Below are positions 3,876 through 40,108 of a DNA stretch of 64,000 nucleotides, in pieces. The stretch's first letter is position 1, and every line of letters starts with the position of its first letter. The translations under genes and the position numbers were made by a program. The notes under the pieces were generated by a model. That model saw only the letters and a program-made list of their open reading frames with translations. It was not told the DNA's origin and did not search any database. The DNA lies in the NCBI GenBank assembly GCA_030698495.1, contig JAUYKA010000005.1, forward strand, positions 8,404 through 72,403. The letters run 5' to 3'. The stretch comes from a bacterium (GTDB lineage: Bacteria; Patescibacteriota; Andersenbacteria; UBA10190).

Positions 3876-4697
3876 TTACCTCGTTTTAATGTACTCGTCA
3901 AGAGCCGTCTCCCACGGCCGCAACACCGGCCCCCTCGTATTATTCAATATACTATATTTCGGCCTCGCCGCGGGCAAAGGATATTCACTGCTGGCAATCG
4001 GCCTAACTATTACCTTCATCCCCGCCAACTCAAAAATCTTGACCGCAAAATCATACCAACTGGCACGGCCGCTGTTCACGGCATGATAAACCCCCGGCTC
4101 ATAACCGCCCGACACAACTTCCTTTGTCGCCCCGGCCAAATCCATCGTATACGTCGGACTGCCCCACTGATCATTAACCACCCCCAACTCTTTCTTCTCG
4201 CCGACCAAACGCAGCATCGTCTCCACAAAATTCTTACCATACGCACCGTAAAGCCACGCTGTGCGTAATAAATAATACTTTGGCGCTATTTCCCGCAAAG
4301 CCTTCTCTCCGGCCAACTTTGATTCTCCATACACATTCACTGCCGGACCAGGCTCGTCATCTTCGCCGTACCCCGCTTCCTGCTTACCATTAAAAACATA
4401 GTCCGTACTATAATGTACTAATATCGCGCCGCTTTCTTTGGCCGCCAATGCCAGATTTCTCACGCCCGTCTCGTTTATAGCAAAAGCCAAGTCGCGCTCT
4501 TTCTCCGCCCCGTCGACGTTCGTATAAGCTGCCGCGTTAATAATCAACTCCGGTGACAGCTCACTAATTTCCCGATTAACATCAGACTGTTTCGTAATGT
4601 CCAGTTTATCCTTATCCCCCACAACAGCTTCTGCCCAAACAGAGCGCAGCGCGTGCCCCAGCATACCGTTGCCGCCCACAATCAGCACCTTGGCCAT
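3876..4697 (-). CDS. rfbD: dTDP-4-dehydrorhamnose reductase
   Basis: N-terminal GGNGMLG Rossmann motif; YSTDYVF and YGESK catalytic motifs of RmlD. Confidence 0.8.
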   Translation of the reverse strand: MAKVLIVGGNGMLGHALRSVWAEAVVGDKDKLDITKQSDVNREISELSPELIINAAAYTNVDGAEKERDLAFAINETGVRNLALAAKESGAILVHYSTDYVFNGKQEAGYGEDDEPGPAVNVYGESKLAGEKALREIAPKYYLLRTAWLYGAYGKNFVETMLRLVGEKKELGVVNDQWGSPTYTMDLAGATKEVVSGGYEPGVYHAVNSGRASWYDFAVKIFELAGMKVIVRPIASSEYPLPAARPKYSILNNTRGPVLRPWETALDEYIKTR

Positions 4698-23077: not shown

Positions 23078-23854
23078 CTATTTAAACCTCTCAAAGTACT
23101 TGTCAATTTCTCCTCTTAACTCAATGCCAACTCTTTCAAAACAATCTAATAGGTTCTTATAAGCATTTTTACCACCTAGAAAATCCCAAAATTCATCAGC
23201 AACCTTAAGCTCATTGGGTAAATCCAACATTCCTCTCATGGTCCAACGATTATAAGCCTGCGGTTCATATGGATTATATGGAATAGCAATATAAGTATGT
23301 ATGGATGCCTTCGGTCTTTCTACTAATATTACAGCAACCCATTCTAGTAGTGTGCGCTTGAATTCCTTAAAACCACCTGCATTTGGTTTCGCTGTTTTTA
23401 TATCAAAAAGATAGTAGTCGTCATTACCAGATTCAACCATTAGGTCTACTCTCGTTGGTTTAACATCTACTATTTTACCTTTTTGGCAAACTTTTCTTAT
23501 ACGCTCAATTTCCTTTTGTTTATCGGGTGAAACACTCGCAGTAGTCAGCCCGTCGATAATTTTCTGGATTTCAGTTTGAGCTTCACTGCTTATCTGATGC
23601 CCCACAATCACTTGTGACTCAGCCTTTTTGAAGTTTTTTTGAGCCAAAGCTAAACCAACTGGTTCAAAAATACTTGTTCCGAAATTTGTATTTAATGAAT
23701 GAATAAAAGAGTATAGAGCTAATCTATCCTTACCAAGTAATCTAGTATGGAATGGCATAACCGCCGGCTCTGGTTTGTAGTTCTGAAACTTGTTTCTAAG
23801 ACTAGTCTTTAAAACCTCCTCGACTTCCTTAATTTGTTTATTTGATATAGACAT
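23078..23854 (-). CDS. Putative type II restriction endonuclease (TdeIII-like family, tentative)
   Basis: 258-aa protein whose start lies 1 nt from the stop of the DNA methyltransferase gene. Low-GC region. Family assignment is from memory of RE_TdeIII-like motifs, not from a search. Confidence 0.45.
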   Translation of the reverse strand: MSISNKQIKEVEEVLKTSLRNKFQNYKPEPAVMPFHTRLLGKDRLALYSFIHSLNTNFGTSIFEPVGLALAQKNFKKAESQVIVGHQISSEAQTEIQKIIDGLTTASVSPDKQKEIERIRKVCQKGKIVDVKPTRVDLMVESGNDDYYLFDIKTAKPNAGGFKEFKRTLLEWVAVILVERPKASIHTYIAIPYNPYEPQAYNRWTMRGMLDLPNELKVADEFWDFLGGKNAYKNLLDCFERVGIELRGEIDKYFERFK

Positions 23855-23855
23855 A

Positions 23856-25442
23856 CTAAATTTGCTTGAGATGAAAAATTATCTCTGAATATGGGTTTCT
23901 GTCACGCTCTGTTCTATTTAAAACCGGCCGCTTAAATCTATTAACTATTTCCATACCCGCTTTTTCTGCAATAGAAGGATATAAGTCATATTTATCATTT
24001 GCAACCAGGAAAACATTGCGGTCGTTTGCCAAATACTTTTTGCAGTTGTTTAAAACAAAAGCAATACCTTCAACGTATGACATTCTAGCTTCCGCACCTT
24101 GTCCTCTATATAAGGGGCCAATTTCATATTCGTCCCTGCGCTCAAAGCCAAACAAATCATAAGCATAGGCATGCTGCTCATGATAATCAATCTGACCAAC
24201 ATAAGGCGGCGAAGTAAAAATACCAGCAATTTTCTTCTTCTGCAAAATTCCATACAGTGTTTTATTTCTCTTTTTCACTTCCTTAAATATATCAACTTGT
24301 CTCGAATCTGCCGGAAGAATAGCATAGTGACTACCTGTTTTTAGATTGTCATATGTTTTGAGTCGATAGACAGTATCAGTTGCGTAACGATCAAACCAGG
24401 TTTTTATAGAAAACAATGGCTTACAAATTTTCTTATGCTTCCAACAATAATAAGTGGCCAGTTGCGGTTCTTTTAGTGTCGCTAAATCCGAGTGGGTCGT
24501 AGCACGACACGACCTAATGGTCCTGCTTAAAATCACTGCTAATATCTTTTTGTTTTTTATATCCGTTACTTTCTTAACCAAATCAAAAGCATAATCAATC
24601 TCTTTTCTAACTCCGTTAATATACCACCTATCAAGAAATGTATTTGTTCCTTTTTGCTTTAACTCAATACTATACTTCTTAATTTGACGCTTATAAACAC
24701 TCAAAAATTCTTTTTCTTTTTCCTCTGCATACTGTTTCTCATTAATCTGTCCCCTGTTTACCTTGTATTTATACTCAGGGCTTGGAAAATACTTATTATT
24801 AAATACAGCCAACTCATTTAGTAGCTCATTTTCAAAAGTGGACATCATACTATCATTTTCATATCCAGCTATTAAGGTTTTAATCTTATCAACATCCTTA
24901 TCTAAAAGGTTAAAATCATAATCCAGCAGCTTAGTCTCCGTAACCATACAGTTAAAGTGCGATATATCTACACCAATCGCATGAATACCCATTTCGTTAG
25001 CCTGAACTAATGCTGTTCCCGAACCGGAAAACGGGTCAAGAACCACGTCTCCTTTTTTAAAATAAACATCCTTTTTGAAATCATCAGTATGGCCATCTAA
25101 AAAATATTCAACCAACTGCGGAATAAACTTACCTTTGTACGGATGAAGTCGATGAACATGTTTAGTCGTGTCTTTTTCACGAAGATGATCAAAAGACAAT
25201 GACCAATTCAAATCGTTGCCCAAACGTTTTTTATACACTAACTCCCGCTTCCCACGAAATGATTTATAGTAGCGCTCAAGATCAGTAACGCTGACATATA
25301 CACCACTTTCGTTAACCCTTTTCTTTACTTTTCCGTACTGAATTAAGTAAGAAATATTAGACTCGCTTATATCTCTTTCTAAAAAATCACTAGCCCATCG
25401 ACTAGCTTCCATAAGAGTTAATAATTTCGTGTTGCCATTCAT
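23856..25442 (-). CDS. DNA methyltransferase (alpha-class amino-MTase; SPPY motif suggests N4-cytosine or N6-adenine)
   Basis: Motif I DPFSGSGT and motif IV TSPPY, separated by about 290 aa (alpha-class order). Confidence 0.8.
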   Translation of the reverse strand: MNGNTKLLTLMEASRWASDFLERDISESNISYLIQYGKVKKRVNESGVYVSVTDLERYYKSFRGKRELVYKKRLGNDLNWSLSFDHLREKDTTKHVHRLHPYKGKFIPQLVEYFLDGHTDDFKKDVYFKKGDVVLDPFSGSGTALVQANEMGIHAIGVDISHFNCMVTETKLLDYDFNLLDKDVDKIKTLIAGYENDSMMSTFENELLNELAVFNNKYFPSPEYKYKVNRGQINEKQYAEEKEKEFLSVYKRQIKKYSIELKQKGTNTFLDRWYINGVRKEIDYAFDLVKKVTDIKNKKILAVILSRTIRSCRATTHSDLATLKEPQLATYYCWKHKKICKPLFSIKTWFDRYATDTVYRLKTYDNLKTGSHYAILPADSRQVDIFKEVKKRNKTLYGILQKKKIAGIFTSPPYVGQIDYHEQHAYAYDLFGFERRDEYEIGPLYRGQGAEARMSYVEGIAFVLNNCKKYLANDRNVFLVANDKYDLYPSIAEKAGMEIVNRFKRPVLNRTERDRNPYSEIIFHLKQI

Positions 25443-25544: not shown

Positions 25545-26435
25545 CTATTGTTTGTAACTAAACCCTTCCCCTATCTTCCACACACCCTTCTCCCGAAAAG
25601 CGGGAATAGACTGCCGCCGCGCCGCATTAGTTATCGCCGACGCCGAAAGATTATTTTTCTTAATATATTCAGACAAACTGACAATGTTCTCTCCTTTTAA
25701 ATAAGTCACCCGTTTGTACAGGGATTCAATCAACATCAAAGCTAATATCTTTTCCATTGTTTTGGTATTCTTTTTCTCCCGATAGTCATCAAACGCCCGA
25801 TAATAATTGGTTTTCTCTTTATTGCGTACAATTAGACGGGGAAATCCCAATCGCAAGAGTTGAAAATTAACTATAACCCGCCCAATGCGTCCGTTACCAT
25901 CATTAAACGGGTGAATACTTTCAAAATCCAAATGCCACTTGGCGATTTTATCTAAGAAATACTTATCCAATTCACTGGAGTACTCCAACATAATTTCATC
26001 TATCAAACGCTCCACGTGCTCCGGCGGAGGCGCTACATGAGTTCCTACCCGAACATATTCACCTGCCTTGCGCCAACGCCCGGCAATTGCATCATCAATT
26101 CCACCTATCAGCATCTTGTGCAAAAGCAAAATCAATTCTTTGGAAACCTCTTCTGTTATCGCCTTGCCTCGCTTGTAATCAACAACCTGAGCCAAATTTT
26201 TTGCCTCGAAAACCTCCCGCAACGATACGTCCCGTGCCAACTCCTGTTCCAGCAAAATCTTCTCCGTTTCTTTCAAAGTGAGAGTTGAATTTTCTATCGC
26301 ATTTGAGTTATAGACACTTTCAGGAATTTCCGCTTCATCAATCATGCTTAAGAGCGACTCTTTACCCTTTTTTAAGGCATCAAAATCAGCCTTTAGCGTC
26401 TTAATTTGCTCCCTAAATTGTTTGGTTGTTGCCAT
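25545..26435 (-). CDS. Fic/Doc family protein (AMPylase)
   Basis: Canonical Fic motif HPFNDGNGRIGR. Confidence 0.85.
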   Translation of the reverse strand: MATTKQFREQIKTLKADFDALKKGKESLLSMIDEAEIPESVYNSNAIENSTLTLKETEKILLEQELARDVSLREVFEAKNLAQVVDYKRGKAITEEVSKELILLLHKMLIGGIDDAIAGRWRKAGEYVRVGTHVAPPPEHVERLIDEIMLEYSSELDKYFLDKIAKWHLDFESIHPFNDGNGRIGRVIVNFQLLRLGFPRLIVRNKEKTNYYRAFDDYREKKNTKTMEKILALMLIESLYKRVTYLKGENIVSLSEYIKKNNLSASAITNAARRQSIPAFREKGVWKIGEGFSYKQ

Positions 26436-26564: not shown

Positions 26565-27275
26565 CTATTTCCTCATCAGCCCATTTTCCCGAAAGCTGAA
26601 CAGTTGCGTTTTGCTGACTACCACATGATCTAGTAATCCTATTCCCATCAATTTTCCCGCTTCAGTTATTTGTTTTGTCACCGCCAAATCCGCTTCGCTC
26701 GGATTGGGATCGCCGGAAGGATGATTGTGGCAAACAGCGATGCTGGCGGCGTGCCGTCTTATTGCCGCGTCAAATGTTTCGCGCGGATGCACTAAATTAG
26801 CGTTAAGCGTCCCGACACCAATCAAGTCCACCCCTAACACCCGGTTACGATTATCAAACGAGGCTACGAAAAAATGTTCTTTCTGCCAGTCGCCAATAAA
26901 TGGTTTTACCAGCCGGGCGATGTCCTCCGGTGCCGCCACCGCTTTTGACTTATTTCTCTTTACCTCACTATCAGTTTCCTCCCGCACCACCCGCCGGGCA
27001 ATTTCCAGACATGCTTTTAATTGCAGTGCTTTCGCCTGCCCCAATCCCGGCACTTTCTGTAACTCCTCAACTGAAGCCGATACTACACCTGCCAACGATC
27101 CAAAACAACTCAACAAATTCTGCGCTATCTGCATTACCGATAACCCCGCCGTCCCGCGACCAAGCACGACGGCAATCAACTCCTGTGCCGAAACACTGCC
27201 AGCGCCGTATTTTACCAAACGCTCCCGCGGCCTCTCCTCCACAGGCATGTCCCGCACCGTGAAATTTTGCTTCAT
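26565..27275 (-). CDS. radC: RadC-like JAB/MPN domain protein
   Basis: HNHPSGDPNPSEAD JAMM motif; N-terminal HhH; start MKQNFTVRDMPVEERPRERL (ATG at 27273-27275). Confidence 0.8.
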   Translation of the reverse strand: MKQNFTVRDMPVEERPRERLVKYGAGSVSAQELIAVVLGRGTAGLSVMQIAQNLLSCFGSLAGVVSASVEELQKVPGLGQAKALQLKACLEIARRVVREETDSEVKRNKSKAVAAPEDIARLVKPFIGDWQKEHFFVASFDNRNRVLGVDLIGVGTLNANLVHPRETFDAAIRRHAASIAVCHNHPSGDPNPSEADLAVTKQITEAGKLMGIGLLDHVVVSKTQLFSFRENGLMRK

Positions 27276-27319
27276 GATTTTATCTACTGAATTTCCCCGC
27301 CCTAAGCCGCCATGATTAA

Positions 27320-27610
27320 TTAGTAAATATTTACCCCCCCACCAAGAACAAAGAGTACCCATACCACCAGAAGAAATCCAACCCAGGCTACACTACCATA
27401 CAAAGCAAATAGATTTATCAAAAAAAATCTACTGGGCTTTTCCAAGTTATTAAGTCGTATTAAATAAAAAAACTCTAATAAAGCAACAGCCACTGGAATA
27501 ATAAACGCAAATATTAAATCATTCTCATTAAAAAAAACAAGGATCGTTAGTGCAACACTAACCACAGCTAAAATTACCGCGACTGCTAAATGTATTTTTA
27601 TCATTCTCAT
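27320..27610 (-). CDS. Hypothetical small membrane protein
   Basis: 96 aa with three hydrophobic helices. Confidence 0.35.
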   Translation of the reverse strand: MRMIKIHLAVAVILAVVSVALTILVFFNENDLIFAFIIPVAVALLEFFYLIRLNNLEKPSRFFLINLFALYGSVAWVGFLLVVWVLFVLGGGVNIY

Positions 27611-29176: not shown

Positions 29177-29533
29177 CTATGACAAACCTTCAATACCACC
29201 GTCCGGCAAATCATCCGCCTCAAACCACTCTATTTCTTCATCCGTAGTAGTAGAAAAGTCGTTGGTATCCCCTTTATAAACAATGGCGTATAAATCTACC
29301 CGCCAACCTTTTGCTTTTAGCTTCCCGAAATATTTCCAGTCTTTCTTTTTGGTTTTCACGCCGGCTTCTTCTTTTACCTCCCTGACAATACAGTCACTGC
29401 TTTCCTCACCGCGCTCAATCCTGCCACCAATTCCATTCAGCTTGCCCGCTTGCCAGTCTGGCCTATTTTTATGCATCAATAAAACCTTTAAAAGATCATG
29501 GCTAAAAATAAAACCGAGAGTATAAGCTTTCAT
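29177..29533 (-). CDS. NUDIX hydrolase
   Basis: Nudix box GIGGRIERGEESSDCIVREVKEEAGV. Confidence 0.75.
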   Translation of the reverse strand: MKAYTLGFIFSHDLLKVLLMHKNRPDWQAGKLNGIGGRIERGEESSDCIVREVKEEAGVKTKKKDWKYFGKLKAKGWRVDLYAIVYKGDTNDFSTTTDEEIEWFEADDLPDGGIEGLS

Positions 29534-29653: not shown

Positions 29654-29947
29654 TTATTCCTTAAACTTGAATGAGCGCTTGTTAGCTTCTTGCAGGATTT
29701 TTAATGTTGCCTGCACAGACAAATTGTCGCTTGGTAACAGCACCAGACGGTCGCCTAATTCATCGGCAAGAGGACTTAAAAATTCATCAGTCCACGACGG
29801 CGACAGGGTCAGCACCCCGGAAAAATCTATTTCCAAAACATCATCCCGTGGTAAATCACGTAAGGTAGTCCGAAACGCTTTAAGGGCCTCACTTCCCAAC
29901 TCCCGGGTAATTAAAGTGGTTCCGAATTTTTCCAACATCAATTTCAT
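29654..29947 (-). CDS. STAS-like domain protein (DUF4325-like; anti-sigma-factor-antagonist fold)
   Basis: 97 aa; secondary-structure pattern and size are consistent with the STAS/DUF4325 family (assignment from memory). Sits immediately downstream of a GHKL ATPase. Confidence 0.45.
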   Translation of the reverse strand: MKLMLEKFGTTLITRELGSEALKAFRTTLRDLPRDDVLEIDFSGVLTLSPSWTDEFLSPLADELGDRLVLLPSDNLSVQATLKILQEANKRSFKFKE

Positions 29948-29970
29948 AAATTTATATATTATCTTATTGC

Positions 29971-30690
29971 TTAAAAATCAATCTTGGCCAAACACCCGTT
30001 TATCGTATTTACTCCCCTAACAACTTTAAAGTCTTTATTGTCATTCTGTAGACGCACTTCAGCATCTCCGCTGGTAAAAAACAGATTAATCGGATTACCG
30101 ACTACAACTTCCCGAACCAATTTCAAACCGTTGCCTCGTTTCTCCGGCGCCCGGCCGGAAATAAATTCAGTAAAAGCCACTTTTACCGCGGCAACATGGT
30201 TAGACAACTCCGGACGAACTTGACGCAATGTCCTTAGAATACCAAGTCCTCTGTCAGCTAATACAATTACCCCCTTCTTAATATCATACCCAAAAAATAT
30301 TCCGGGCACATCCGGCCATTTGCCTAAATTATGAGCAAATGAATTATCACCTATTTCACCGGCAATCAAGACAATAAGTGAATATAACTCTTCAAATCCA
30401 GGCTTGGCCATAAGTTCACGCTCCATTTTTACCAGCCTTGCTTGAAAGACAGCACTTGTCTGACAATAGAATCTCTCCGGAAATTCAGTTTTGTCACCAG
30501 CCCATTCGAAAGCGAATTTTAAAAGATCACTCGCGAAAATTTCGAGATCTTTCTCTCGATAATATCTGTGTGTTCCGCCTTCCTTTTTAATGGCAACCAA
30601 TTTTCCTCTTTCATCCCACCGGCGCAGGGTATCAATTGAAACACCAAGTATTTCAGCCGCTTGACTGATTGTTAACAGTTTTCTTTCCAT
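29971..30690 (-). CDS. MerR-type HTH fused to a GHKL (histidine-kinase-like / anti-sigma-factor-kinase-like) ATPase domain
   Basis: N-terminal LTISQAAEILGVSIDTLRRWDERGKL (MerR HTH). N-box GEIGDNSFAHN, G1 box DRGLGI and G2 box GNGLKLVRE. Confidence 0.6.
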   Translation of the reverse strand: MERKLLTISQAAEILGVSIDTLRRWDERGKLVAIKKEGGTHRYYREKDLEIFASDLLKFAFEWAGDKTEFPERFYCQTSAVFQARLVKMERELMAKPGFEELYSLIVLIAGEIGDNSFAHNLGKWPDVPGIFFGYDIKKGVIVLADRGLGILRTLRQVRPELSNHVAAVKVAFTEFISGRAPEKRGNGLKLVREVVVGNPINLFFTSGDAEVRLQNDNKDFKVVRGVNTINGCLAKIDF

Positions 30691-30832
30691 ATCTACACTA
30701 TAACATACCCTATAAATCTATGCAATTATTACATAAAACTATGCATTATTACTATAATCTATGCATTTTATTGATATTTATGGGCAAATTTCATACTTTC
30801 AGCTCATAAATTCACGCGTTTTTCCTGATTTT

Positions 30833-31237
30833 CTATTTCTCCCGATCCAGCGCTTCATTCACTAGCCTATCAGCTATCTTATTTTTATCCCGCGTCACGT
30901 GCGTAAAAGAAGTTGTCTCAAACTTATCCGCTAGTTCCTTCGCCTCAACAAATAACTGTTTTAATCCGTTATTTTTCACCCGATAATTTCCTTTCAACTG
31001 CTCCACCACCAACTGGCTGTCCAGAAAACATTTTATCTCGGACACCCCCGCCTCCAGCGCCATAGCTAATCCTTTTATCAACGCTTTATATTCCGCCTGA
31101 TTGTTTGTCGTCTCGCCGATATACTCGCCGTACTCCAGCGCCTGTTCCCCTTCCACCCTAAGCACTAAACCGATTCCCGCCGGCCCCGGGTTCCCTCTGG
31201 CTCCTCCATCGGTAAATAAAGTGGCTTTTTTTGACAT
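30833..31237 (-). CDS. rnhA: Ribonuclease HI
   Basis: TDGGARGNPG, NNQAEY and DSQLVV catalytic DEDD motifs. Confidence 0.8.
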   Translation of the reverse strand: MSKKATLFTDGGARGNPGPAGIGLVLRVEGEQALEYGEYIGETTNNQAEYKALIKGLAMALEAGVSEIKCFLDSQLVVEQLKGNYRVKNNGLKQLFVEAKELADKFETTSFTHVTRDKNKIADRLVNEALDREK

Positions 31238-32947: not shown

Positions 32948-33376
32948 CTATTGAATTCTCGGACCCTTCGTGTGCCGGTTGATAACATTTTTTTCCGTCC
33001 GGGTATGCCTGATAAACTTATGCAGCAAATCCACGATGCCCGCGTACTGGGTGATAATACTGGACAAATCGCGCTGCACCTCTTCTTTCTGCTGGAGCAC
33101 GTATGCCAACCTCAACCAATAATCCGTTTCAATCGCTTTCATCCTCGCCTCCGTCAAATGTCTATCAAAATCACCCGGCTCCTCCGCCGCGTTCGCCCGC
33201 ACCAAGTGGGTGCCCACTGCCATAGCCGTTTTCACCATTTCCTGCTTCACTATCACCCCGCCCGCGTCATCCTCCAAAGAATCCGCCAGCGTCACCACAT
33301 CCTGAATAACCTGAAAAATCCGGTCCCACAATTCCGCCTGCCGATGCTCCCAAATTGAAGAATGCGAATCTTCCAT
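32948..33376 (-). CDS. Four-helix-bundle protein (23S rRNA intervening-sequence protein family)
   Basis: 142-aa all-alpha protein resembling the TIGR02436-type family (from memory). Confidence 0.45.
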   Translation of the reverse strand: MEDSHSSIWEHRQAELWDRIFQVIQDVVTLADSLEDDAGGVIVKQEMVKTAMAVGTHLVRANAAEEPGDFDRHLTEARMKAIETDYWLRLAYVLQQKEEVQRDLSSIITQYAGIVDLLHKFIRHTRTEKNVINRHTKGPRIQ

Positions 33377-33446: not shown

Positions 33447-34775
33447 CTAAACATCATCTTTAATATTAACCCCGCCTGTATCCGGCTGATGGTATTCCAA
33501 AAAAGCCTGAAAAGGCTTGGCCAGCTTCGCCTGTGTCTCCTCCTCGATCCGTAACAGCCGGTTATACTTCGCTGTTCTCTCTGATCGTGTCGGCGCGCCC
33601 GTCTTGATTTGTCCTGCTCCGGTAGCTACCGCCAAATCGGCGATAAAAGTATCCTCCGTCTCGCCGGAGCGATGCGAAATAATAACATTTTGCTTGGCCT
33701 CTTGCGCCATCAATATCGCCTGCAGAGTTTCCGAAACGGTACCCACCTGGTTAAGCTTAATCAGCACCGCATTGGCCGCTCCGCGCACAATGCCCTCGCG
33801 TATTCTTGTGCTGTTAGTCACGTACAAATCATCGCCCACAATCTGTAACGCCTGCCCGTTGCGCTTGGTAAAATTCACCCAGTCATCCCAACTATCTTCA
33901 TCAAAAGGATCTTCGATAGAAATAAGTGGATAGCGTTCTCTCCATGTTTTATACAAATAAGCCAAGTCACCCGGCGGCATATCCTTACCGTCCATCTTAT
34001 AAACCTTGTTTTCGTGATCATAAAATTCGTTGGCCGCCGCGTCTATCCCCAGAAAAGCATCCACCCCCGGCTTATAGCCGGCCGTTTCAATTGCCCTGTT
34101 TAAAAACGTAAATACCAGCTCACTTTGCCCCAGCTTCGGCGCGAAGCCCCCCTCGTCAGCCACTTCCACCTGCCAGCCTTCTTTCTTTAAAATATCGCGC
34201 AAAGCATAGTGAATTTCCGCGCCCATGCGCAAAGCCTCGCTAAAACTGGCCGTCCCTACCGGCAGAACATGAAATTCCTGTATCGCCAGCTGATTACTCG
34301 CGTGCACTCCGCCATTTATCAAATTCATTTGCGGTACTGGCAGCCTTGCTTCTCGCTCCGGAAAAAGCTGCTGCAGATACATATACAGCGGCAAACCTTG
34401 TGCCGCCGCCTCCGCTCGGACACACGCCATCGATACCGCCAGTATCGCGTTGGCTCCCAGTCTCGATTTATTCGGTGTGCCATCCAACTCCAGCAATGTC
34501 CGATCAATTTTTGATTGATTGGCTGTATCTTTTCCGTGTAAAGCCGCGTTAATCTCGCCTCTAATATTCTTAACCGCTCCCAGTATGCCCTTTCCCCGAT
34601 AACGCTTCTCATCGCCGTCACGTAGCTCGTGCGCTTCGTGCTTTCCCGTGGAAGCGCCCGAGGGCACCATCGCGCTCACGCTAATACCGCCGGCCGCGTC
34701 CACCTGCGCCTCCACCGTCGGATTTCCCCGGGAATCCAAAATCTCCCTCGCAATTATCTTCTCAATCTTGGCCAT
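33447..34775 (-). CDS. eno: Enolase
   Basis: N-terminal IIAREILDSRGNPTVEA; enolase signature SHRSGETED. Confidence 0.95.
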   Translation of the reverse strand: MAKIEKIIAREILDSRGNPTVEAQVDAAGGISVSAMVPSGASTGKHEAHELRDGDEKRYRGKGILGAVKNIRGEINAALHGKDTANQSKIDRTLLELDGTPNKSRLGANAILAVSMACVRAEAAAQGLPLYMYLQQLFPEREARLPVPQMNLINGGVHASNQLAIQEFHVLPVGTASFSEALRMGAEIHYALRDILKKEGWQVEVADEGGFAPKLGQSELVFTFLNRAIETAGYKPGVDAFLGIDAAANEFYDHENKVYKMDGKDMPPGDLAYLYKTWRERYPLISIEDPFDEDSWDDWVNFTKRNGQALQIVGDDLYVTNSTRIREGIVRGAANAVLIKLNQVGTVSETLQAILMAQEAKQNVIISHRSGETEDTFIADLAVATGAGQIKTGAPTRSERTAKYNRLLRIEEETQAKLAKPFQAFLEYHQPDTGGVNIKDDV

Positions 34776-34800
34776 AATCCTACAGGCTAATGACTAATAG

Positions 34801-35991
34801 CTAATCACTAACATACAGCGGTTCCAATCCCGGCATCCTCTTATTCTCCAGAAAAGCGATCATCGCGCCGCCGCCCACCGAAACATGGTCGTACTTATTC
34901 AGCACTTTCGCTTTCTGTAAAGCGATAATAGTATCACCGCCGCCTACCACCCGATAGCTGGATAATTGCGCCAGCTCCGTTGCCAAAGCCTCCGTCGCCT
35001 TGGCATAAGCCGGTACCTCAAAACGCCCCATCGGTCCATTCCACATAATAGTCGCGGCTTCCCTGGCGTATTTCATAAACAGTTCCACCGTTTTAGGCCC
35101 GACATCAAAAACTCCCGCCACCCCCTCCGGTATCTCATCAACGCCTGCTACCACAGCATCGCTTCCATCCTCATTGCCAATCACCACATCAACCGGCAAA
35201 ACTATTTTATCGCCGCCTTTATCCAGCAAGACCCGGGCAACCGATGTCTCGTCAGCCGTAAAATGGTCCGCGCGCTTACCCTGCGCCGCCAAAAAAACAT
35301 TGGCTAACCGGCCTCCGATGCATAACTTATCCACCTGTTCCAGCAACCGATAAAGCATCCCTATCTTCGTCTCAATTTTTGCTCCTGAAGTTATCGCCAC
35401 ATACGGCTTAGCCGGATTACTCCTTAACTTTGTCAGCTTCGCCACTTCCTCCACCGTCCGCCGTCCCGCGCCCGAAGACAATAATCTGGGTGCGATAGAC
35501 ACCGACGCGTGATTACGGTGTGACACACTGAAAGCTTCATTTATATATACCTCCGCGTTATCGCAAATTTCCCGAGCGAATTGTTCGCTGCCTTCCTCTT
35601 CCCGCACATCCATCCGCACATTCGGCAGCAAAGCCACATCTCCCGGGTTCATACCTCCCAGCACCGCCTTAACTCCATCGCCGTACAACTTATTGATACT
35701 GGTTACTTCCTCGCCCAACAAGCCCTCCAAACGATCACGCACCGGCCCCAGCTCCGTGTTTTCCTTGCTCTCCCCCGGACGGCCGCGATGGGTAAGCAAT
35801 AGCACCTTGCATCTTCTTTGCATCAACTCTTCGATCGTCGCTAGAGCCGCTTTTATCCGGTAATCTTCCGTTTCTTCCACTCTCCCGCTATCATTCGTCG
35901 CCACGTTAAAATCAACTCTCACTAAAACTGCCTTACCGTCCACCGGCAAGTCATCAAGAGTTTTTAACTTTCTCGCGGTCTTATTCTCCAT
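34801..35991 (-). CDS. pgk: Phosphoglycerate kinase
   Basis: RVDFNV and MAKKGVT-like motifs; 396 aa. Confidence 0.95.
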   Translation of the reverse strand: MENKTARKLKTLDDLPVDGKAVLVRVDFNVATNDSGRVEETEDYRIKAALATIEELMQRRCKVLLLTHRGRPGESKENTELGPVRDRLEGLLGEEVTSINKLYGDGVKAVLGGMNPGDVALLPNVRMDVREEEGSEQFAREICDNAEVYINEAFSVSHRNHASVSIAPRLLSSGAGRRTVEEVAKLTKLRSNPAKPYVAITSGAKIETKIGMLYRLLEQVDKLCIGGRLANVFLAAQGKRADHFTADETSVARVLLDKGGDKIVLPVDVVIGNEDGSDAVVAGVDEIPEGVAGVFDVGPKTVELFMKYAREAATIMWNGPMGRFEVPAYAKATEALATELAQLSSYRVVGGGDTIIALQKAKVLNKYDHVSVGGGAMIAFLENKRMPGLEPLYVSD

Positions 35992-36018
35992 AAAGTCAGA
36001 TTATCACAACCAACCCGC

Positions 36019-37029
36019 TTATTTTGCGCTTTGCCTTATCGCCACGGCTTGTTCAACCAATCGATTGGAATACCCCCACTCGTTATCGTACCAACCCATA
36101 ACCTTCACTAAATTGCCGCCTACCACGCGCGTCATGGCCAAATCTACCGTCACTGAATGCGGATCGCCGATAAAATCACTGGATACCACCGGCTCGCTCG
36201 TTACCGCCAGCACTCCCTCATAAAGAGGATTGCTCGCCGCTTCTTCAAAGACCTTAACGATTTCCTCGACTGTCACTTCTTTCTTAGTCACCAACACGCA
36301 ATCCGACATCGACACCACCGGTACCGGCACCCGCAAGGCCACCCCGTCAAACTTGCCCGCCAGTGGCTGATACGCTTTGGTCGCCGCTATCGCCGCGCCG
36401 GTAGAAGACGGCACCATGTTAGCCGCGGCCGCCCGTCCGCGCCGAAAATCTTTCTTCGCCGGTCCGTCAACAACACTCTGCGTGGCCGTGTAGGCATGCA
36501 CCGTAGTCATAACCGCTTTCTCCACCCCGAACGCGTTATCCATCACCGCCACCATTGGCGCCACGCAATTTGTGGTGCACGAAGCATTGGAAACTATTTC
36601 CTTACCCGCCAAATCTTTATCGTTGACACCCATAACCACCGTGGCTACCCCCTCGCTTTTTGTGGGCGCCGAGATAATAACATGCTTAGCCCCGGCCGTT
36701 ATGTGACGACGGGCTTCCTCTTCTTCAGTGAAGACACCGGTGGACTCAATGACCGTATCAATGCCCATCTCCCCCCAGGGCAACTTGTCCGGCTCGCGTT
36801 CATTCAGCACTTTTATCTCCTTGTCATCAACTCGCAGAACACCGTCGCTCATTGTTACTTTTCTGGCATAGCGACCGTACACTGTGTCGTATCGCAATAA
36901 ATAAGCTAAATTTTCCGGATCACCCAAGTCGTTTATCGCCACCATTTCCACATCATCGTTCTCCAACGCTATTTTAAAAACCGCCCGGCCGATGCGCCCG
37001 AAACCATTGATTGCAATTTTTGTTTTCAT
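36019..37029 (-). CDS. gap: Glyceraldehyde-3-phosphate dehydrogenase
   Basis: INGFGRIGR NAD-binding motif; ASCTTNC active site. Confidence 0.95.
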   Translation of the reverse strand: MKTKIAINGFGRIGRAVFKIALENDDVEMVAINDLGDPENLAYLLRYDTVYGRYARKVTMSDGVLRVDDKEIKVLNEREPDKLPWGEMGIDTVIESTGVFTEEEEARRHITAGAKHVIISAPTKSEGVATVVMGVNDKDLAGKEIVSNASCTTNCVAPMVAVMDNAFGVEKAVMTTVHAYTATQSVVDGPAKKDFRRGRAAAANMVPSSTGAAIAATKAYQPLAGKFDGVALRVPVPVVSMSDCVLVTKKEVTVEEIVKVFEEAASNPLYEGVLAVTSEPVVSSDFIGDPHSVTVDLAMTRVVGGNLVKVMGWYDNEWGYSNRLVEQAVAIRQSAK

Positions 37030-37141
37030 AGTTGAGTAGAATTAAGAATCATGAATAAAGAATACAATATACTTAATTTACTGTCCTCGCCTTGTCCTCC
37101 GTAGCTTCATGCGAAGGATGGGCTGTATTTACTGTATTTAC

Positions 37142-38152
37142 TTAAATAGTGCCATAAACCACAGGCTTAATCTTGCTGTTTTTGCGAATCAATTGCTCTA
37201 CACCATCTTTATTTAAAAGCCCCTCCCTCGCCCCGATATAACGCACCACCGAAGTTGAATTAGCATTACCCCACAGCATTGCCTCGGTTATTGTTTTACC
37301 GTGCACTAAAGCCCCCATAAACCCGGCGCCATAACTGTCCCCGGCCCCTGTTCTTTCCACCACTTCACCGGCAAAAATTTTCAACCTTAAAATTTTTCCT
37401 CCGTCAACCGCGTATGAACCGTTCGGGCCATCAGTTAGCACCACGCTGCCAACCCCGATATCCAAAAACCCCTTTATCAATTGACCTACATCATCGCTTG
37501 ATATCCTCAACAGCTCTTGCGATTCCTCGCGATTAATAAATAGTACCTCGGTCTTTTCTAACAACGGCTTTAATCCCTCTAGACCCAAATTCATCTGGTG
37601 CGTCCCCGGATTAAACGCTATCTTTACTTCCGGATTTTCCTCTAAATACGCCAGTACTTGCTCATGTAAACTTTTTACTCCGCCGCCAGACGAAGACGTC
37701 AAATAAATCCAGCGCGGCCGGGCAAAATGCGGCAAGCGATACTCCCGCGGCTCATGATAAACCAGAATAGTCCGCTCGCTGTTAAAGTTTATTACTGCAG
37801 AGAAGTTGGTACCGTGCTCCTTATCAAAAACAACATATCTCGCATCTACCCCGTTCTCCCGAAAAACATCCTGGGCTAAATGACCCTGCACATCGTCTCC
37901 TAACACCGTATAAATAGCCGCTCTCAAACCCAAACGCGCCACCCCGATGGCGTGATTAGCCGCGTTCCCGACTGCCGGCACATCCGTCTTTTTCTCTACC
38001 GCTATTTTGTCCGCAAATCGCAAACAGAATTTACAATTACCGCCTTGATTGTCGCAGTGAACTTCCGCATCAGACATCTGCAAAAAAACATCTTCCGTCG
38101 TATCGCCAATAGCGACAATATCAAAAACCGGCGCGCTCACTCTTTTCTCCAT
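37142..38152 (-). CDS. PfkB-family carbohydrate kinase (candidate phosphofructokinase, PFK-2 type)
   Basis: PfkB signature GAGDSYGAGFMGAL; embedded between gap and fba. Confidence 0.7.
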   Translation of the reverse strand: MEKRVSAPVFDIVAIGDTTEDVFLQMSDAEVHCDNQGGNCKFCLRFADKIAVEKKTDVPAVGNAANHAIGVARLGLRAAIYTVLGDDVQGHLAQDVFRENGVDARYVVFDKEHGTNFSAVINFNSERTILVYHEPREYRLPHFARPRWIYLTSSSGGGVKSLHEQVLAYLEENPEVKIAFNPGTHQMNLGLEGLKPLLEKTEVLFINREESQELLRISSDDVGQLIKGFLDIGVGSVVLTDGPNGSYAVDGGKILRLKIFAGEVVERTGAGDSYGAGFMGALVHGKTITEAMLWGNANSTSVVRYIGAREGLLNKDGVEQLIRKNSKIKPVVYGTI

Positions 38153-38202
38153 TGGCTTATTGTATCATTTTTAACCTCTCTTGTCTCTCGCAAAAGCGGG
38201 CA

Positions 38203-38372
38203 GCGACACGCGCAGAATTTCCCTTGTCGGCCGTCTGAAGACCTGCCGGCCCGGTCTCCGCCATTGTTTTGCCTTGGCAAAACAATGGCGGAGCGGCAGG
38301 GCTTCAGCCGAGTAACACCCACCGCTGGGGTGGGTGTTATGTGCCAACAAGGGAAATTCTGCGCGTGTCGCT
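38203..38372. repeat. Family E element, copy 3 (between the PfkB kinase gene and fba)
   Basis: Same core; the outer stem is AGCGACACGCGCAGAATTTCCCTTGT paired with its complement. Confidence 0.7.
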
Positions 38373-38390
38373 CACTAAAATTCGATGCAC

Positions 38391-39278
38391 TTAAGCTGCC
38401 TTACCGTCGCTACCAAAAAGTCTAATCTTCTCTTCCACCACCCGTTGCACCGCATCTCTGGCCGGCCCCAGTATTTTACGCGGATCACACTTATCATGCT
38501 CCTGGCCAAAATAACTTTTTACAGCACGCTCAAACGCCAACCGCAGCTCCGTATCCACATTTACTTTACAGACATTAGTATGCGCCACTCTCTGCAAATG
38601 TTCGCTCGCCAGCCCCGAAGCCCCATGAATGACCAACGGCAATGCCGGCAGCTGCTTGGCTATTTCCTCTACTAACTCAAACCTGATATACTCCCGACCA
38701 CTAAACGCACCGTGTATCGTACCAACCGCCACCGCTAAACAATCAACCCCCGTCGCTTCCACAAATTTCTTTGTCTGCGCGGGATTCGTTAGCAACTCAT
38801 CCGAAGGCGCCTCTCCCTGCAAAGTTTTTATCCCTTCCGCCCCTAAAATAGTGCCCAGCTCTGCCTCCACCCACACTCCGTGCGCATGCGCATATTCAAC
38901 CACTTCGCCGGTCAACGCGATATTTTCGTCTATCGGCTTGGTAGAGGCGTCAATCATTACGGAAGTGTATCCGGCCTCAATGCAATTTTTCACCACTGCC
39001 ATACTGTGACCGTGATCCAAATGCATCACCACCGGCACATTTGCTTCCCCTGCCAGGGAACTGATAATCGCTGCTATCTGTTTTTGCCCCGTGTATTCTA
39101 TTGCCCCCTCCGACGTTTGCACTATAACCGGCGCACGTTGTTTCTGTGCTGCCCAGATAATTGCCTGTGTTAACTCTAAATTTGATGTATTAAAAGCGCC
39201 CAATGCGTACTGCATATTAAATGCCTTGGCAAATAATTCACGAGGTTTAACTAACATATCATTATAATAAATTTTCAA
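38391..39278 (-). CDS. fba: Fructose-bisphosphate aldolase class II
   Basis: HLDHG metal-binding motif; the N-terminus is typical of FbaA. Confidence 0.9.
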   Translation of the reverse strand: MKIYYNDMLVKPRELFAKAFNMQYALGAFNTSNLELTQAIIWAAQKQRAPVIVQTSEGAIEYTGQKQIAAIISSLAGEANVPVVMHLDHGHSMAVVKNCIEAGYTSVMIDASTKPIDENIALTGEVVEYAHAHGVWVEAELGTILGAEGIKTLQGEAPSDELLTNPAQTKKFVEATGVDCLAVAVGTIHGAFSGREYIRFELVEEIAKQLPALPLVIHGASGLASEHLQRVAHTNVCKVNVDTELRLAFERAVKSYFGQEHDKCDPRKILGPARDAVQRVVEEKIRLFGSDGKAA

Positions 39279-39328
39279 TTATCAATTTACAATTTTCATT
39301 GAAGCATCAATGATTCAATTTCTAAACA

Positions 39329-40108
39329 TTAAAAAGTTCTTTCAATCTTTTCTACAGCTTTTACAATATTCACAAACTCTGCCGATTTTACCGAAGCGCC
39401 TCCCACCAGCACGCCGTCCACCCCCGGCTCACTAACAAAATCCGCTGCGTTTCCGGCATTTACACTCCCGCCGTATAAAATTCTGATCTTCTCCGCCGCC
39501 TCCGCTCCCAACTTTTCCGCTGCTATTTTCCGAATCAACAGCATAGTCTGCGCCGCTTCCGCCGGATCGGGCGTTTCTCCCGTACCAATCGCCCAGATCG
39601 GTTCATATGCAATTACCAACCGAGACACAGACACTCCGGTTTGTTGGGTAAATATTGCAGTAGCTTGCCGGGTAATCTTACTCACAGTCTCTCCCCTGTT
39701 TCTTTCATCTGCGGTTTCTCCCACACATACAATCGGCGTCAACCCGTGCTTCTGTAACACGTAAACTTTTGCTCTTACCTGCTCGTCCGTCTCCCCAACC
39801 AACTGACGTCGCTCCGAATGCCCCACAATGCACCAGCGCGCAAACGGTGTCAGCTGGGACACCGACACCTCACCCGTCCAGGCTCCTCCTTCTTCCCAAT
39901 GAACATTTTGCGCTCCAAGTTGCACTTTTTCATTTTTTGCTAACTTGGTCGCTACCGCCGGCAAAGACGTAAATGAAGGCGCGATTACTACATCCACATC
40001 CAAATAAATACCGGCTAACATCTTTTTTATCGCTCCGGCAACTTCCAAAGCCGCCTTATGCGATAGATCCATTTTCCAATTTCCAACAACCAAAAACTTA
40101 TTCGCCAT
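39329..40108 (-). CDS. tpiA: Triosephosphate isomerase
   Basis: GNWKMD, GHSERR and AYEPIWAIGTG motifs. Confidence 0.9.
   Translation of the reverse strand: MANKFLVVGNWKMDLSHKAALEVAGAIKKMLAGIYLDVDVVIAPSFTSLPAVATKLAKNEKVQLGAQNVHWEEGGAWTGEVSVSQLTPFARWCIVGHSERRQLVGETDEQVRAKVYVLQKHGLTPIVCVGETADERNRGETVSKITRQATAIFTQQTGVSVSRLVIAYEPIWAIGTGETPDPAEAAQTMLLIRKIAAEKLGAEAAEKIRILYGGSVNAGNAADFVSEPGVDGVLVGGASVKSAEFVNIVKAVEKIERTF

Follow-up and report, generated by a model that had tools for sequence, protein, structure and literature searches.

The 64-kb stretch of DNA analyzed here (hereafter the window) is part of a contig of Candidatus Andersenbacteria, which belongs to the candidate phyla radiation (CPR, or Patescibacteria), and carries on its minus strand a two-gene module in which a gene for a kinase-like protein lies upstream and a gene for a STAS-fold protein lies downstream. 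Gene 1 (29971-30690, ATG start) encodes a protein of 239 aa joining a helix-turn-helix (HTH) to a predicted GHKL domain, and gene 2 (29654-29947, ATG start) encodes a single-domain STAS-fold protein of 97 aa that belongs to the DUF4325 branch. Both open reading frames (ORFs) had been proposed in an earlier interpretation made from the nucleotide sequence (hereafter the sequence-only reading) and were found where it had placed them; gene 2 does follow gene 1 immediately, with a gap of 23 nt (29948-29970) and not of 24 nt as first counted. No second copy of the module was found in the window. The gene 1 protein is identical to an NCBI protein from a Candidatus Andersenbacteria metagenome-assembled genome (MAG), annotated solely as 'helix-turn-helix domain-containing protein'. 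All module features described below are on the minus strand.

Profile matches and an alignment with BldC located a winged HTH of the BldC/excisionase type at aa 1-52 of the gene 1 protein (30535-30690). Residues 5-52 matched MerR_1, MerR and HTH_17 with E-values of ~1e-11 to 1e-12, the NCBIfam 'excise' and 'BldC' models matched below their cut-offs (26.8 bits for HTH_BldC against a cut-off of 77), phmmer matched the domain to BldC with an E-value of 5e-5, and the fold search showed its likeness to excisionases. The BldC family of MerR-like winged-HTH regulators was founded on BldC of Streptomyces, in which R30, W31, H46 and R47 contact the DNA by reading a G:C pair, kinking the duplex and inserting into the AT-rich minor groove (PMC5859096); these four contacts align with R24, W25, H41 and R42 of gene 1, all of them invariant. 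Neither the structure model nor the fold search gave any coiled coil or effector domain after the HTH, which is thus a winged HTH of ~50 aa closest to BldC and devoid of the MerR dimerisation helix, and which, unlike the small stand-alone protein, is fused to a C-terminal region of 187 aa. Because no coiled coil follows the HTH and the BldC contact residues align, we assign the N-terminus to the BldC/excisionase type and not to classical MerR proteins. The 'MerR-type HTH' of the sequence-only reading was therefore right as to the presence of an HTH and its match to MerR-family profiles, and wrong as to the type. A classical MerR regulator was also rejected on the side of the DNA, where the predicted operators are direct repeats, lying over the -35 element and further upstream, and not a palindrome, and the promoter spacer is of 17 bp and not of 19-20 bp.

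The HTH is followed by a family-specific helical segment (aa 53-99), which holds W63 and the motif F-Y-C76-Q-T-S, and then by a predicted small GHKL (Bergerat-fold) ATP-binding domain that spans aa ~100-239 (29974-30393). The N box (E112-I-G-D-N116-S-F-A-H120-N, 30328-30357) is invariant in 40 close homologues and takes the form E..xN.FDHN in 24 distant relatives, mutually only ~35-50% identical, while the G1 box (D146-R-G-L-G150, 30241-30255) and the G2 box at the end of the ATP lid (R185-G-N-G-L189, 30124-30138) are invariant in both sets. The three boxes named by the sequence-only reading are real, and the ATP-binding residues on which it had made its assignment depend are present and invariant on alignment. 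The GHKL part of the window protein matched no Pfam or NCBIfam model, so that the domain would merit a Pfam model of its own, and a profile of the GHKL family found nothing significant among PDB sequences. Among the distant relatives, 11/24 weakly matched HATPase_c_2, the RsbW/SpoIIAB-type family (best E-value 7e-4), and 10/24 matched HATPase_c. The AlphaFold2 model of gene 1 was moderately confident (mean predicted local distance difference test, pLDDT, of 63.7, with low values in the ATP-lid region), and its elements follow the Bergerat order of helix, two strands, helix, lid, helix and long hairpin. The top GHKL-fold matches of the C-terminus in the fold search were SpoIIAB and RsbW, with which the domain shares a size of ~140 aa, a short lid and the lack of a transducer domain; the viral fold library BFVD returned excisionase-like HTHs and generic GHKL enzymes only. 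Taken together, motifs and model lead us to accept the C-terminus as a small ATP-binding domain of the GHKL kind, in the size class of the anti-sigma kinases; that the protein acts as a kinase is what we infer.

All 40 aligned HTH-type homologues share two cysteines, C76 of the F-Y-C-Q-T-S motif (30463-30465) and C233 near the C-terminus (29992-29994); C76 is common in the distant relatives too, and a redox signal is a conceivable input. A further match of the GHKL domain, both in the window protein and in its distant relatives, was to phrog_3364, a PHROG family without assigned function (profile of 304 positions), with E-values of 1e-8 to 4e-13; the likeness is at the profile level, and tblastn found no similarity in deposited phage genomes.

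The gene 2 protein scored 16.4 bits against DUF4325 (PF14213), under the Pfam threshold of 23, and PF14213 is assigned to many of its homologues 76-87% identical to it, as well as to the partners of the distant relatives. Its family profile found nothing significant among PDB sequences. The fold search gave a confident STAS fold with RsbV/SpoIIAA-type antagonists as the best structural matches, and we are confident that the protein has a STAS fold of the DUF4325 branch, as the sequence-only reading had supposed. Its motif D41-FSG-V-LTL-S49-P50-S51-W could be aligned with the canonical STAS motif D-lsg-V-tfi-D-S-s-G, and this places S49-P50-S51 (29795-29803), at the N-terminus of a long helix (aa 50-67), as the candidate phospho-acceptor region. 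Residue S51 is invariant across the family, including the partners of relatives that lack the HTH, position 49 being S, T or A there, and a phospho-acceptor at the start of the long helix appears plausible from the alignment.

Other proteins with a DUF4325-like domain were noted. Residues 21-71 of the PDB entry 9z71_A ('winged helix-turn-helix transcriptional regulator', 184 aa) matched a DUF4325-like profile at a non-significant E-value of 0.55, and the entry may be a DUF4325-winged-HTH fusion. One locus of the family (L014) carries an orphan DUF4325/STAS-like gene (4193-4597, 134 aa, 46% identical to gene 2) with no adjoining GHKL gene, between an AbiEi/AbiEii pair and RadC and 5.4 kb upstream of the complete module of the same locus; extra STAS-like proteins of this kind might be additional inputs.

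Homologues of gene 1 make up 4718 clusters at 90% identity, the top 120 of which are 76-84% identical to it and come from many CPR lineages. A scan with two exact patterns over one genome per species detected the family in 181 of 185,579 species-representative genomes, a patchy distribution, and 80 loci were retrieved from the genomes found in this way. A STAS gene lies downstream of the gene 1 homologue, on the same strand and 6-95 nt away, in 80/80 loci. Relatives of the GHKL domain that lack the HTH, also from Patescibacteria, are directly followed by a DUF4325 gene in 7/7 contexts examined. The pair, whose conservation had been left as a check by the sequence-only reading, is therefore obligate, and because the HTH-less relatives too pair with a DUF4325 gene, GHKL-STAS is the invariant core, to which DNA-binding domains of more than one HTH type have been added.

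The C-terminal 182 aa of gene 1, searched against 1.84 billion representative proteins, gave 298 matches at E-values ≤ 0.001, comprising forms of ~240 aa with various N-terminal DNA-binding domains, forms of ~190 aa without an HTH and one cytidylyltransferase-like fusion; among 20 matches inspected in this unannotated collection no canonical kinase was recognised. Two of these proteins (P0241 and P0275) carry a MarR/TrmB-like winged HTH in front of the GHKL core, and P0270 is the cytidylyltransferase-like fusion. A TrmB-family regulator gene lies near the HTH-less forms in 3/7 contexts, NUDIX, CTP_transf_like or CYTH genes adjoin some of them, and Fic genes also stand beside HTH-less relatives (L085-L087). 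Some module-bearing MAG records are titled Gammaproteobacteria, Bdellovibrionales, Roseivirgaceae or Elusimicrobiaceae (L031, L052, L062, L064, L072 and L073), which would be either mislabelled or mis-binned CPR DNA or transfer outside the CPR.

Upstream of gene 1 we identified an array of three direct repeats, the sole exact matches to these sequences in the window. The proximal repeat (TGCATAGATT, 30715-30724) overlaps a -35-like TTGCAT (30720-30725), the middle repeat (TGCATAGTTT, 30736-30745) lies 21 nt from it, and the distal repeat (again TGCATAGATT, 30756-30765) lies 20 nt further. An extended -10-like element, TG-T-TATAGT (30697-30705), follows TTGCAT at a distance of 17 nt and leaves 6 nt to the ATG. 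The same arrangement recurs in the 79 loci used for the promoter counts: three to four direct repeats of the form TG[N][A/G]TAG[A/T]T[T/A] are present upstream of gene 1 in 71 of them, the repeats are spaced by 20 or 21 nt in 166/191 intervals, in 61 loci the proximal repeat begins 34-35 nt ahead of the start codon, and the distance from TATGaTAnnAT to the start is 6-7 nt in 60. The aligned consensus (repeat, ~10 nt, repeat, ~10 nt, TTG(C/T)(A/G)T-AGATTT, N8-9, TATGaTAnnAT, 6-7 nt, ATG) would read as a -35-like hexamer within the proximal repeat, a 17-nt spacer, an extended -10 and essentially no leader, which implies a leaderless or near-leaderless mRNA. A generic sigma-70 scan does not flag the module promoter, because TTGCAT fits only 3/6 positions of TTGACA, and therefore the promoter call, and with it the putative promoter function of the conserved element, rests on the conservation across loci.

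Phased repeat pairs numbered 124 in the module promoters and 0 elsewhere in the 1.1 Mb flanking the 80 loci, and repeats were absent upstream of the HTH-less relatives, whereas a 53%-identical HTH-fused variant (L081) has its own repeat pair, AATGAGTAGGTT, 22 nt apart. A wider regulon was considered and rejected: no phased operator pair occurs outside the module promoters in the window or in the flanks, and single operator-like sites are not enriched (9 observed against 7.4 expected in the window; 68 observed in the flanks against 115 in shuffles).

To this comparative picture the covariation between the HTH and the repeats adds the strongest support available, short of a binding assay, that the HTH would read them. 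Residue 20, the first of the recognition helix and aligned with K26 of BldC, tracks repeat positions 3-4: D occurs with CA in 36/36 loci and N with (T/G/A)G in 36/41, with the minor states Q (with TA) and G (with TA or TG); the association has a Fisher p of 4.5e-21, computed on related sequences. In D-type loci, position 8 of the repeat is A at 30/34 sites with E27 and T at 24/32 sites with K27; residue 27 aligns with K33 of BldC, and residue 19 also tracks this position. Both the D and the N specificity classes are found within single named lineages, e.g., Doudnabacteria and Uhrbacteria. The covariation argues for autoregulation by the predicted HTH-operator contact, and since the proximal repeat overlaps the -35 element, auto-repression is its likeliest sign. 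The idea of a self-contained transcriptional switch, put forward in the sequence-only reading, is strengthened by this conserved operator array that covaries with the HTH.

The two main classes also differ in the make-up of their arrays. D-class promoters carry TGCATAG(A/T)TT in all three repeats; in N-class promoters (L003, L010, L016, L029, L030, L033 and others) the distal repeat is TGAGTAGATT, the middle TGGGTAGATT and the proximal TGTGTAGATT, each conserved across loci. Such position-specific repeats suggest graded affinities or a constraint from the -35 element.

Between loci, the median pairwise identity of the module is 79% for the protein and 73% for the nucleotide sequences. The rate of nonsynonymous substitution (dN) is 0.145, that of synonymous substitution (dS) has a median of 1.9 where defined and is saturated or undefined in 136/292 pairs, and dN/dS is ~0.06; the GC content at third codon positions (GC3) correlates with the GC content of the flanking DNA (r = 0.71). 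In the same genome pairs the module is 78.7% identical against a mean of 44.4% for the neighbour families, a neighbour exceeding the module in 0.9% of 225 pairs, and against RpoC, for which two pairs only are available, the identities are 86.8% and 54.6%. The conservation of the module is the result of strong purifying selection over long residence. Recent horizontal transfer or an assembly artefact was rejected as the source of the high identity, as dS is saturated and GC3 follows the flanks; an older transfer within the CPR may have occurred, since both specificity classes sit within single lineages.

On this evidence we propose, with a probability of about 0.55, that the module is an autonomous, self-regulated two-gene switch of the CPR that resembles a partner switch but whose GHKL protein, rather than holding a sigma factor, is joined to a DNA-binding domain of its own. 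According to the comparative evidence, the BldC-type winged HTH of the 239-aa protein would read the three TGCATAG(A/T)TT repeats, 20-21 bp apart on one helix face, and occupancy over the -35 element would block RNA polymerase and repress the operon. The 97-aa STAS-fold protein would dock on the GHKL domain, as its fold, the gene linkage and the analogy with RsbW-RsbV and SpoIIAB-SpoIIAA suggest, and ATP binding, probably with phosphotransfer to Ser51 or Ser49, where the long helix begins, would set the lifetime of the complex. Binding of the partner would in turn alter the oligomeric state or geometry of the HTH-GHKL protein and shift the cooperative occupancy of the three repeats, so that transcription of the operon would mirror how much of the partner is free and how much is bound or phosphorylated, a ratio that would depend on ATP. 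As input, ATP/ADP is plausible, and so is a factor unlinked to the module.

In canonical partner switching a kinase phosphorylates a conserved serine and a PP2C phosphatase reverses the reaction (PMC8256260). The RsbW-RsbV and SpoIIAB-SpoIIAA pairs resemble the module in that one operon encodes, side by side, a small GHKL protein carrying the N, G1 and G2 boxes and a single-domain STAS protein, and in the fold search both the GHKL domain and the small protein matched them best. The module differs from them in that its GHKL protein carries its own DNA-binding domain, no sigma factor or PP2C phosphatase is linked, the order is kinase and then STAS, the partner is of the DUF4325 branch with a proline, flanked by conserved serine, at the place of the canonical phospho-serine, and the sequence similarity is under profile thresholds. 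SiaB-SiaC of Pseudomonas aeruginosa, whose SiaC belongs to DUF1987, has both a PP2C phosphatase and a diguanylate cyclase; compared with this and other partner switches whose output is not a sigma factor, the module has its output HTH fused to the kinase-like protein and no linked phosphatase. MerR-like winged-HTH proteins of the pSK1 Par and RacA type use coiled coils and serve DNA segregation or anchoring, whereas the module has its repeats at a fixed -35 register and a GHKL ATPase as the partner domain. BldC itself is a stand-alone protein of 68 aa that forms a head-to-tail oligomer on repeats one helical turn apart (PMC5859096), whereas the module HTH is fused to GHKL and its direct repeats are two turns (20-21 bp) apart.

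Several observations weigh against the proposed switch. The covariation is drawn from related sequences, and the state of residue 20 changes at least 14 times on a poorly resolved neighbour-joining tree of the C-terminal domain alone, which we treat only as more than one event. The spacing of two helical turns departs from the one turn of BldC filaments (PMC5859096) and therefore makes head-to-tail HTH-HTH contacts unlikely; cooperativity probably runs via the GHKL domain or its oligomer. No second operator array or output gene was found in the window or in the 1.1 Mb of flanks, and neither a PP2C phosphatase family nor a sigma-factor family was found among the families common to at least two of 135 flanking genes or within ~12 kb of the module in the window. 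Lastly, the motif register, drawn against SpoIIAA, puts Pro50 of gene 2 at the canonical STAS phospho-serine position.

The missing phosphatase and sigma-factor genes and the proline at the canonical serine position make a serious rival of the view that the GHKL domain is a non-kinase ATPase working as a dimerisation or clamp switch, like those of the MORC, MutL and Hsp90 types, with the STAS-like protein regulating it allosterically or sensing its nucleotide state, and never being phosphorylated itself; architecture and autoregulation would then be the same. HATPase_c matches, about as frequent among the distant relatives as HATPase_c_2 matches, also favor it. The domain is small, however, with a short lid, no transducer and SpoIIAB and RsbW as its top GHKL-fold matches, and the obligate STAS linkage together with an invariant serine at the N-terminus of a helix is a hallmark of kinase-antagonist pairs (PMC8256260). 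We consider this rival improbable, and still the best of the alternatives.

The strength of conservation raises the question of whether the real output lies beyond the own promoter, with the GHKL domain also sequestering or phosphorylating a cellular target (e.g., the housekeeping sigma factor), or the HTH acting pleiotropically at degenerate sites as BldC does, and autoregulation setting only the dose. Identities so far above those of the neighbour families, and of RpoC in the two pairs compared, suggest several interaction partners; chlamydial RsbW-type systems control targets other than alternative sigma factors (PMC8256260), and the BldC regulon is large, with degenerate sites (PMC5859096). 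But the operator-like single sites show no enrichment in the window or the flanks, presence in so few of the species genomes scanned is patchy for a core global regulator, and no sign of any target was found, so that we regard such an output as quite unlikely.

As regards the surroundings, 70 of the 73 predicted ORFs of the window are on the minus strand, and no tRNA gene that could mark an integration site was found in it. On the upstream side of the module the window holds RNase HI (30833-31237), RecJ, a 23S-rRNA-IVP-like four-helix protein (32948-33376) between RecJ and enolase, and, just upstream of RecJ, RNase HI and the module, a contiguous glycolysis cluster (33447-40108: enolase, PGK, GAPDH, a PfkB-family kinase, class II FBP aldolase and TIM). 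On the downstream side there are NUDIX (29177-29533), membrane proteins and a small variable islet with RadC (26565-27362), Fic (25545-26435), an N6/N4 DNA methylase (23856-25442) and a TdeIII-type restriction endonuclease (23078-23854), the last two being a type II restriction-modification pair. The 'defence/mobilome island' of the sequence-only reading is at most half right, as it applies to this islet on one side only and not to the side of RNase HI, RecJ and glycolysis; the NUDIX and RNase HI neighbours that it pointed out are present, but their adjacency is not conserved elsewhere and they are incidental. When 1,235 flanking ORFs were clustered by BLAST and the 135 immediate neighbours were assigned to Pfam families, no third gene came out as conserved, whether NUDIX, RNase HI, Fic, a phosphatase, a sigma factor or an integrase. 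The commonest flanking families were GIY-YIG (12/80 loci) and Fic (7/80 loci within ~10 kb; 4/135 immediate neighbours), and the 135 neighbours fell into 178 different Pfam families, housekeeping mixed with restriction-modification, Abi, Fic and insertion sequence (IS) genes.

Relatives of the GHKL domain do occur in mobile elements, as phrog_3364 and the L081 variant indicate. The latter is encoded in a prophage fragment (L081:5575-8101) after a replication initiator, small and large terminase subunits and a large serine integrase, on a contig that ends before any partner gene, and it could be an integrase-associated regulator or directionality factor; a contig with this variant is the only one found in IMG/VR. 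These links, the autoregulated two-gene layout in variable contexts, the excisionase-like HTH, the Fic, restriction-modification, AbiEii and IS200 genes that flank some loci and, in the window, the RadC, Fic and type II restriction-modification genes 2-6 kb downstream would fit a selfish or defensive cassette, that is, a toxin-antitoxin or abortive-infection pair (kinase toxin with STAS antidote or decoy), or a mobile-element regulator or recombination-directionality factor. However, in the defence models of PADLOC-DB v2 the HTH alone (aa 1-57) matched, to mad1, and the small protein did not match at all; neither protein matched a toxin family in the Pfam, NCBIfam or PADLOC profiles, and no toxic or effector domain is present. 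A tblastn search with the GHKL part gave no match in 50,697 phage and 72,556 plasmid records, conservation does not extend to an integrase or any other third gene, the repeats hold a fixed promoter register and do not behave as an attachment site, and the low dN/dS, saturated dS and host-tracking GC3 are unlike those of typical toxin-antitoxin or defence genes. We therefore hold a selfish or defensive cassette to be very improbable, and the phage-responsive or abortive-infection role suggested by the sequence-only reading is not borne out by the missing effector domain, the HTH-only PADLOC match, the lack of matches in the phage and plasmid collections and the strong purifying selection.

Returning to the self-regulated switch, literature searches gave no published description of an HTH-GHKL/STAS family, including an HTH-fused RsbW or partner switching in Patescibacteria. 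What is new is a pair resembling a partner switch whose kinase-like protein bears a fused BldC-type HTH and which comes with an operator code of its own, predicted to link residue 20 to repeat positions 3-4 and residue 27 to position 8. In its boldest and so far tentative form, which we find possible but doubtful, the module would represent an undescribed class of partner switching where the GHKL kinase-like protein is itself the transcription factor, a minimal, ATP-sensing and self-regulated switch that is confined to the CPR, ultra-conserved and in control of growth, dormancy or host-association state, with the orthogonal classes D20-CA, N20-NG and Q20-TA. The operator code makes the system testable in vitro and in heterologous hosts without culture of CPR bacteria. 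It is a compact module of three defined parts (sensor/actuator, partner and cis-element) with thousands of sequence clusters, and it is more conserved than any neighbour family compared, including the few pairs of RNA polymerase beta-prime. If the proposal is true, naturally orthogonal repressor-operator pairs would be supplied, and partner switching would widen from a kinase that holds a sigma factor to a kinase that is the DNA-binding repressor, in genomes of the CPR that encode very few recognisable regulators and where regulatory decisions are almost uncharted.

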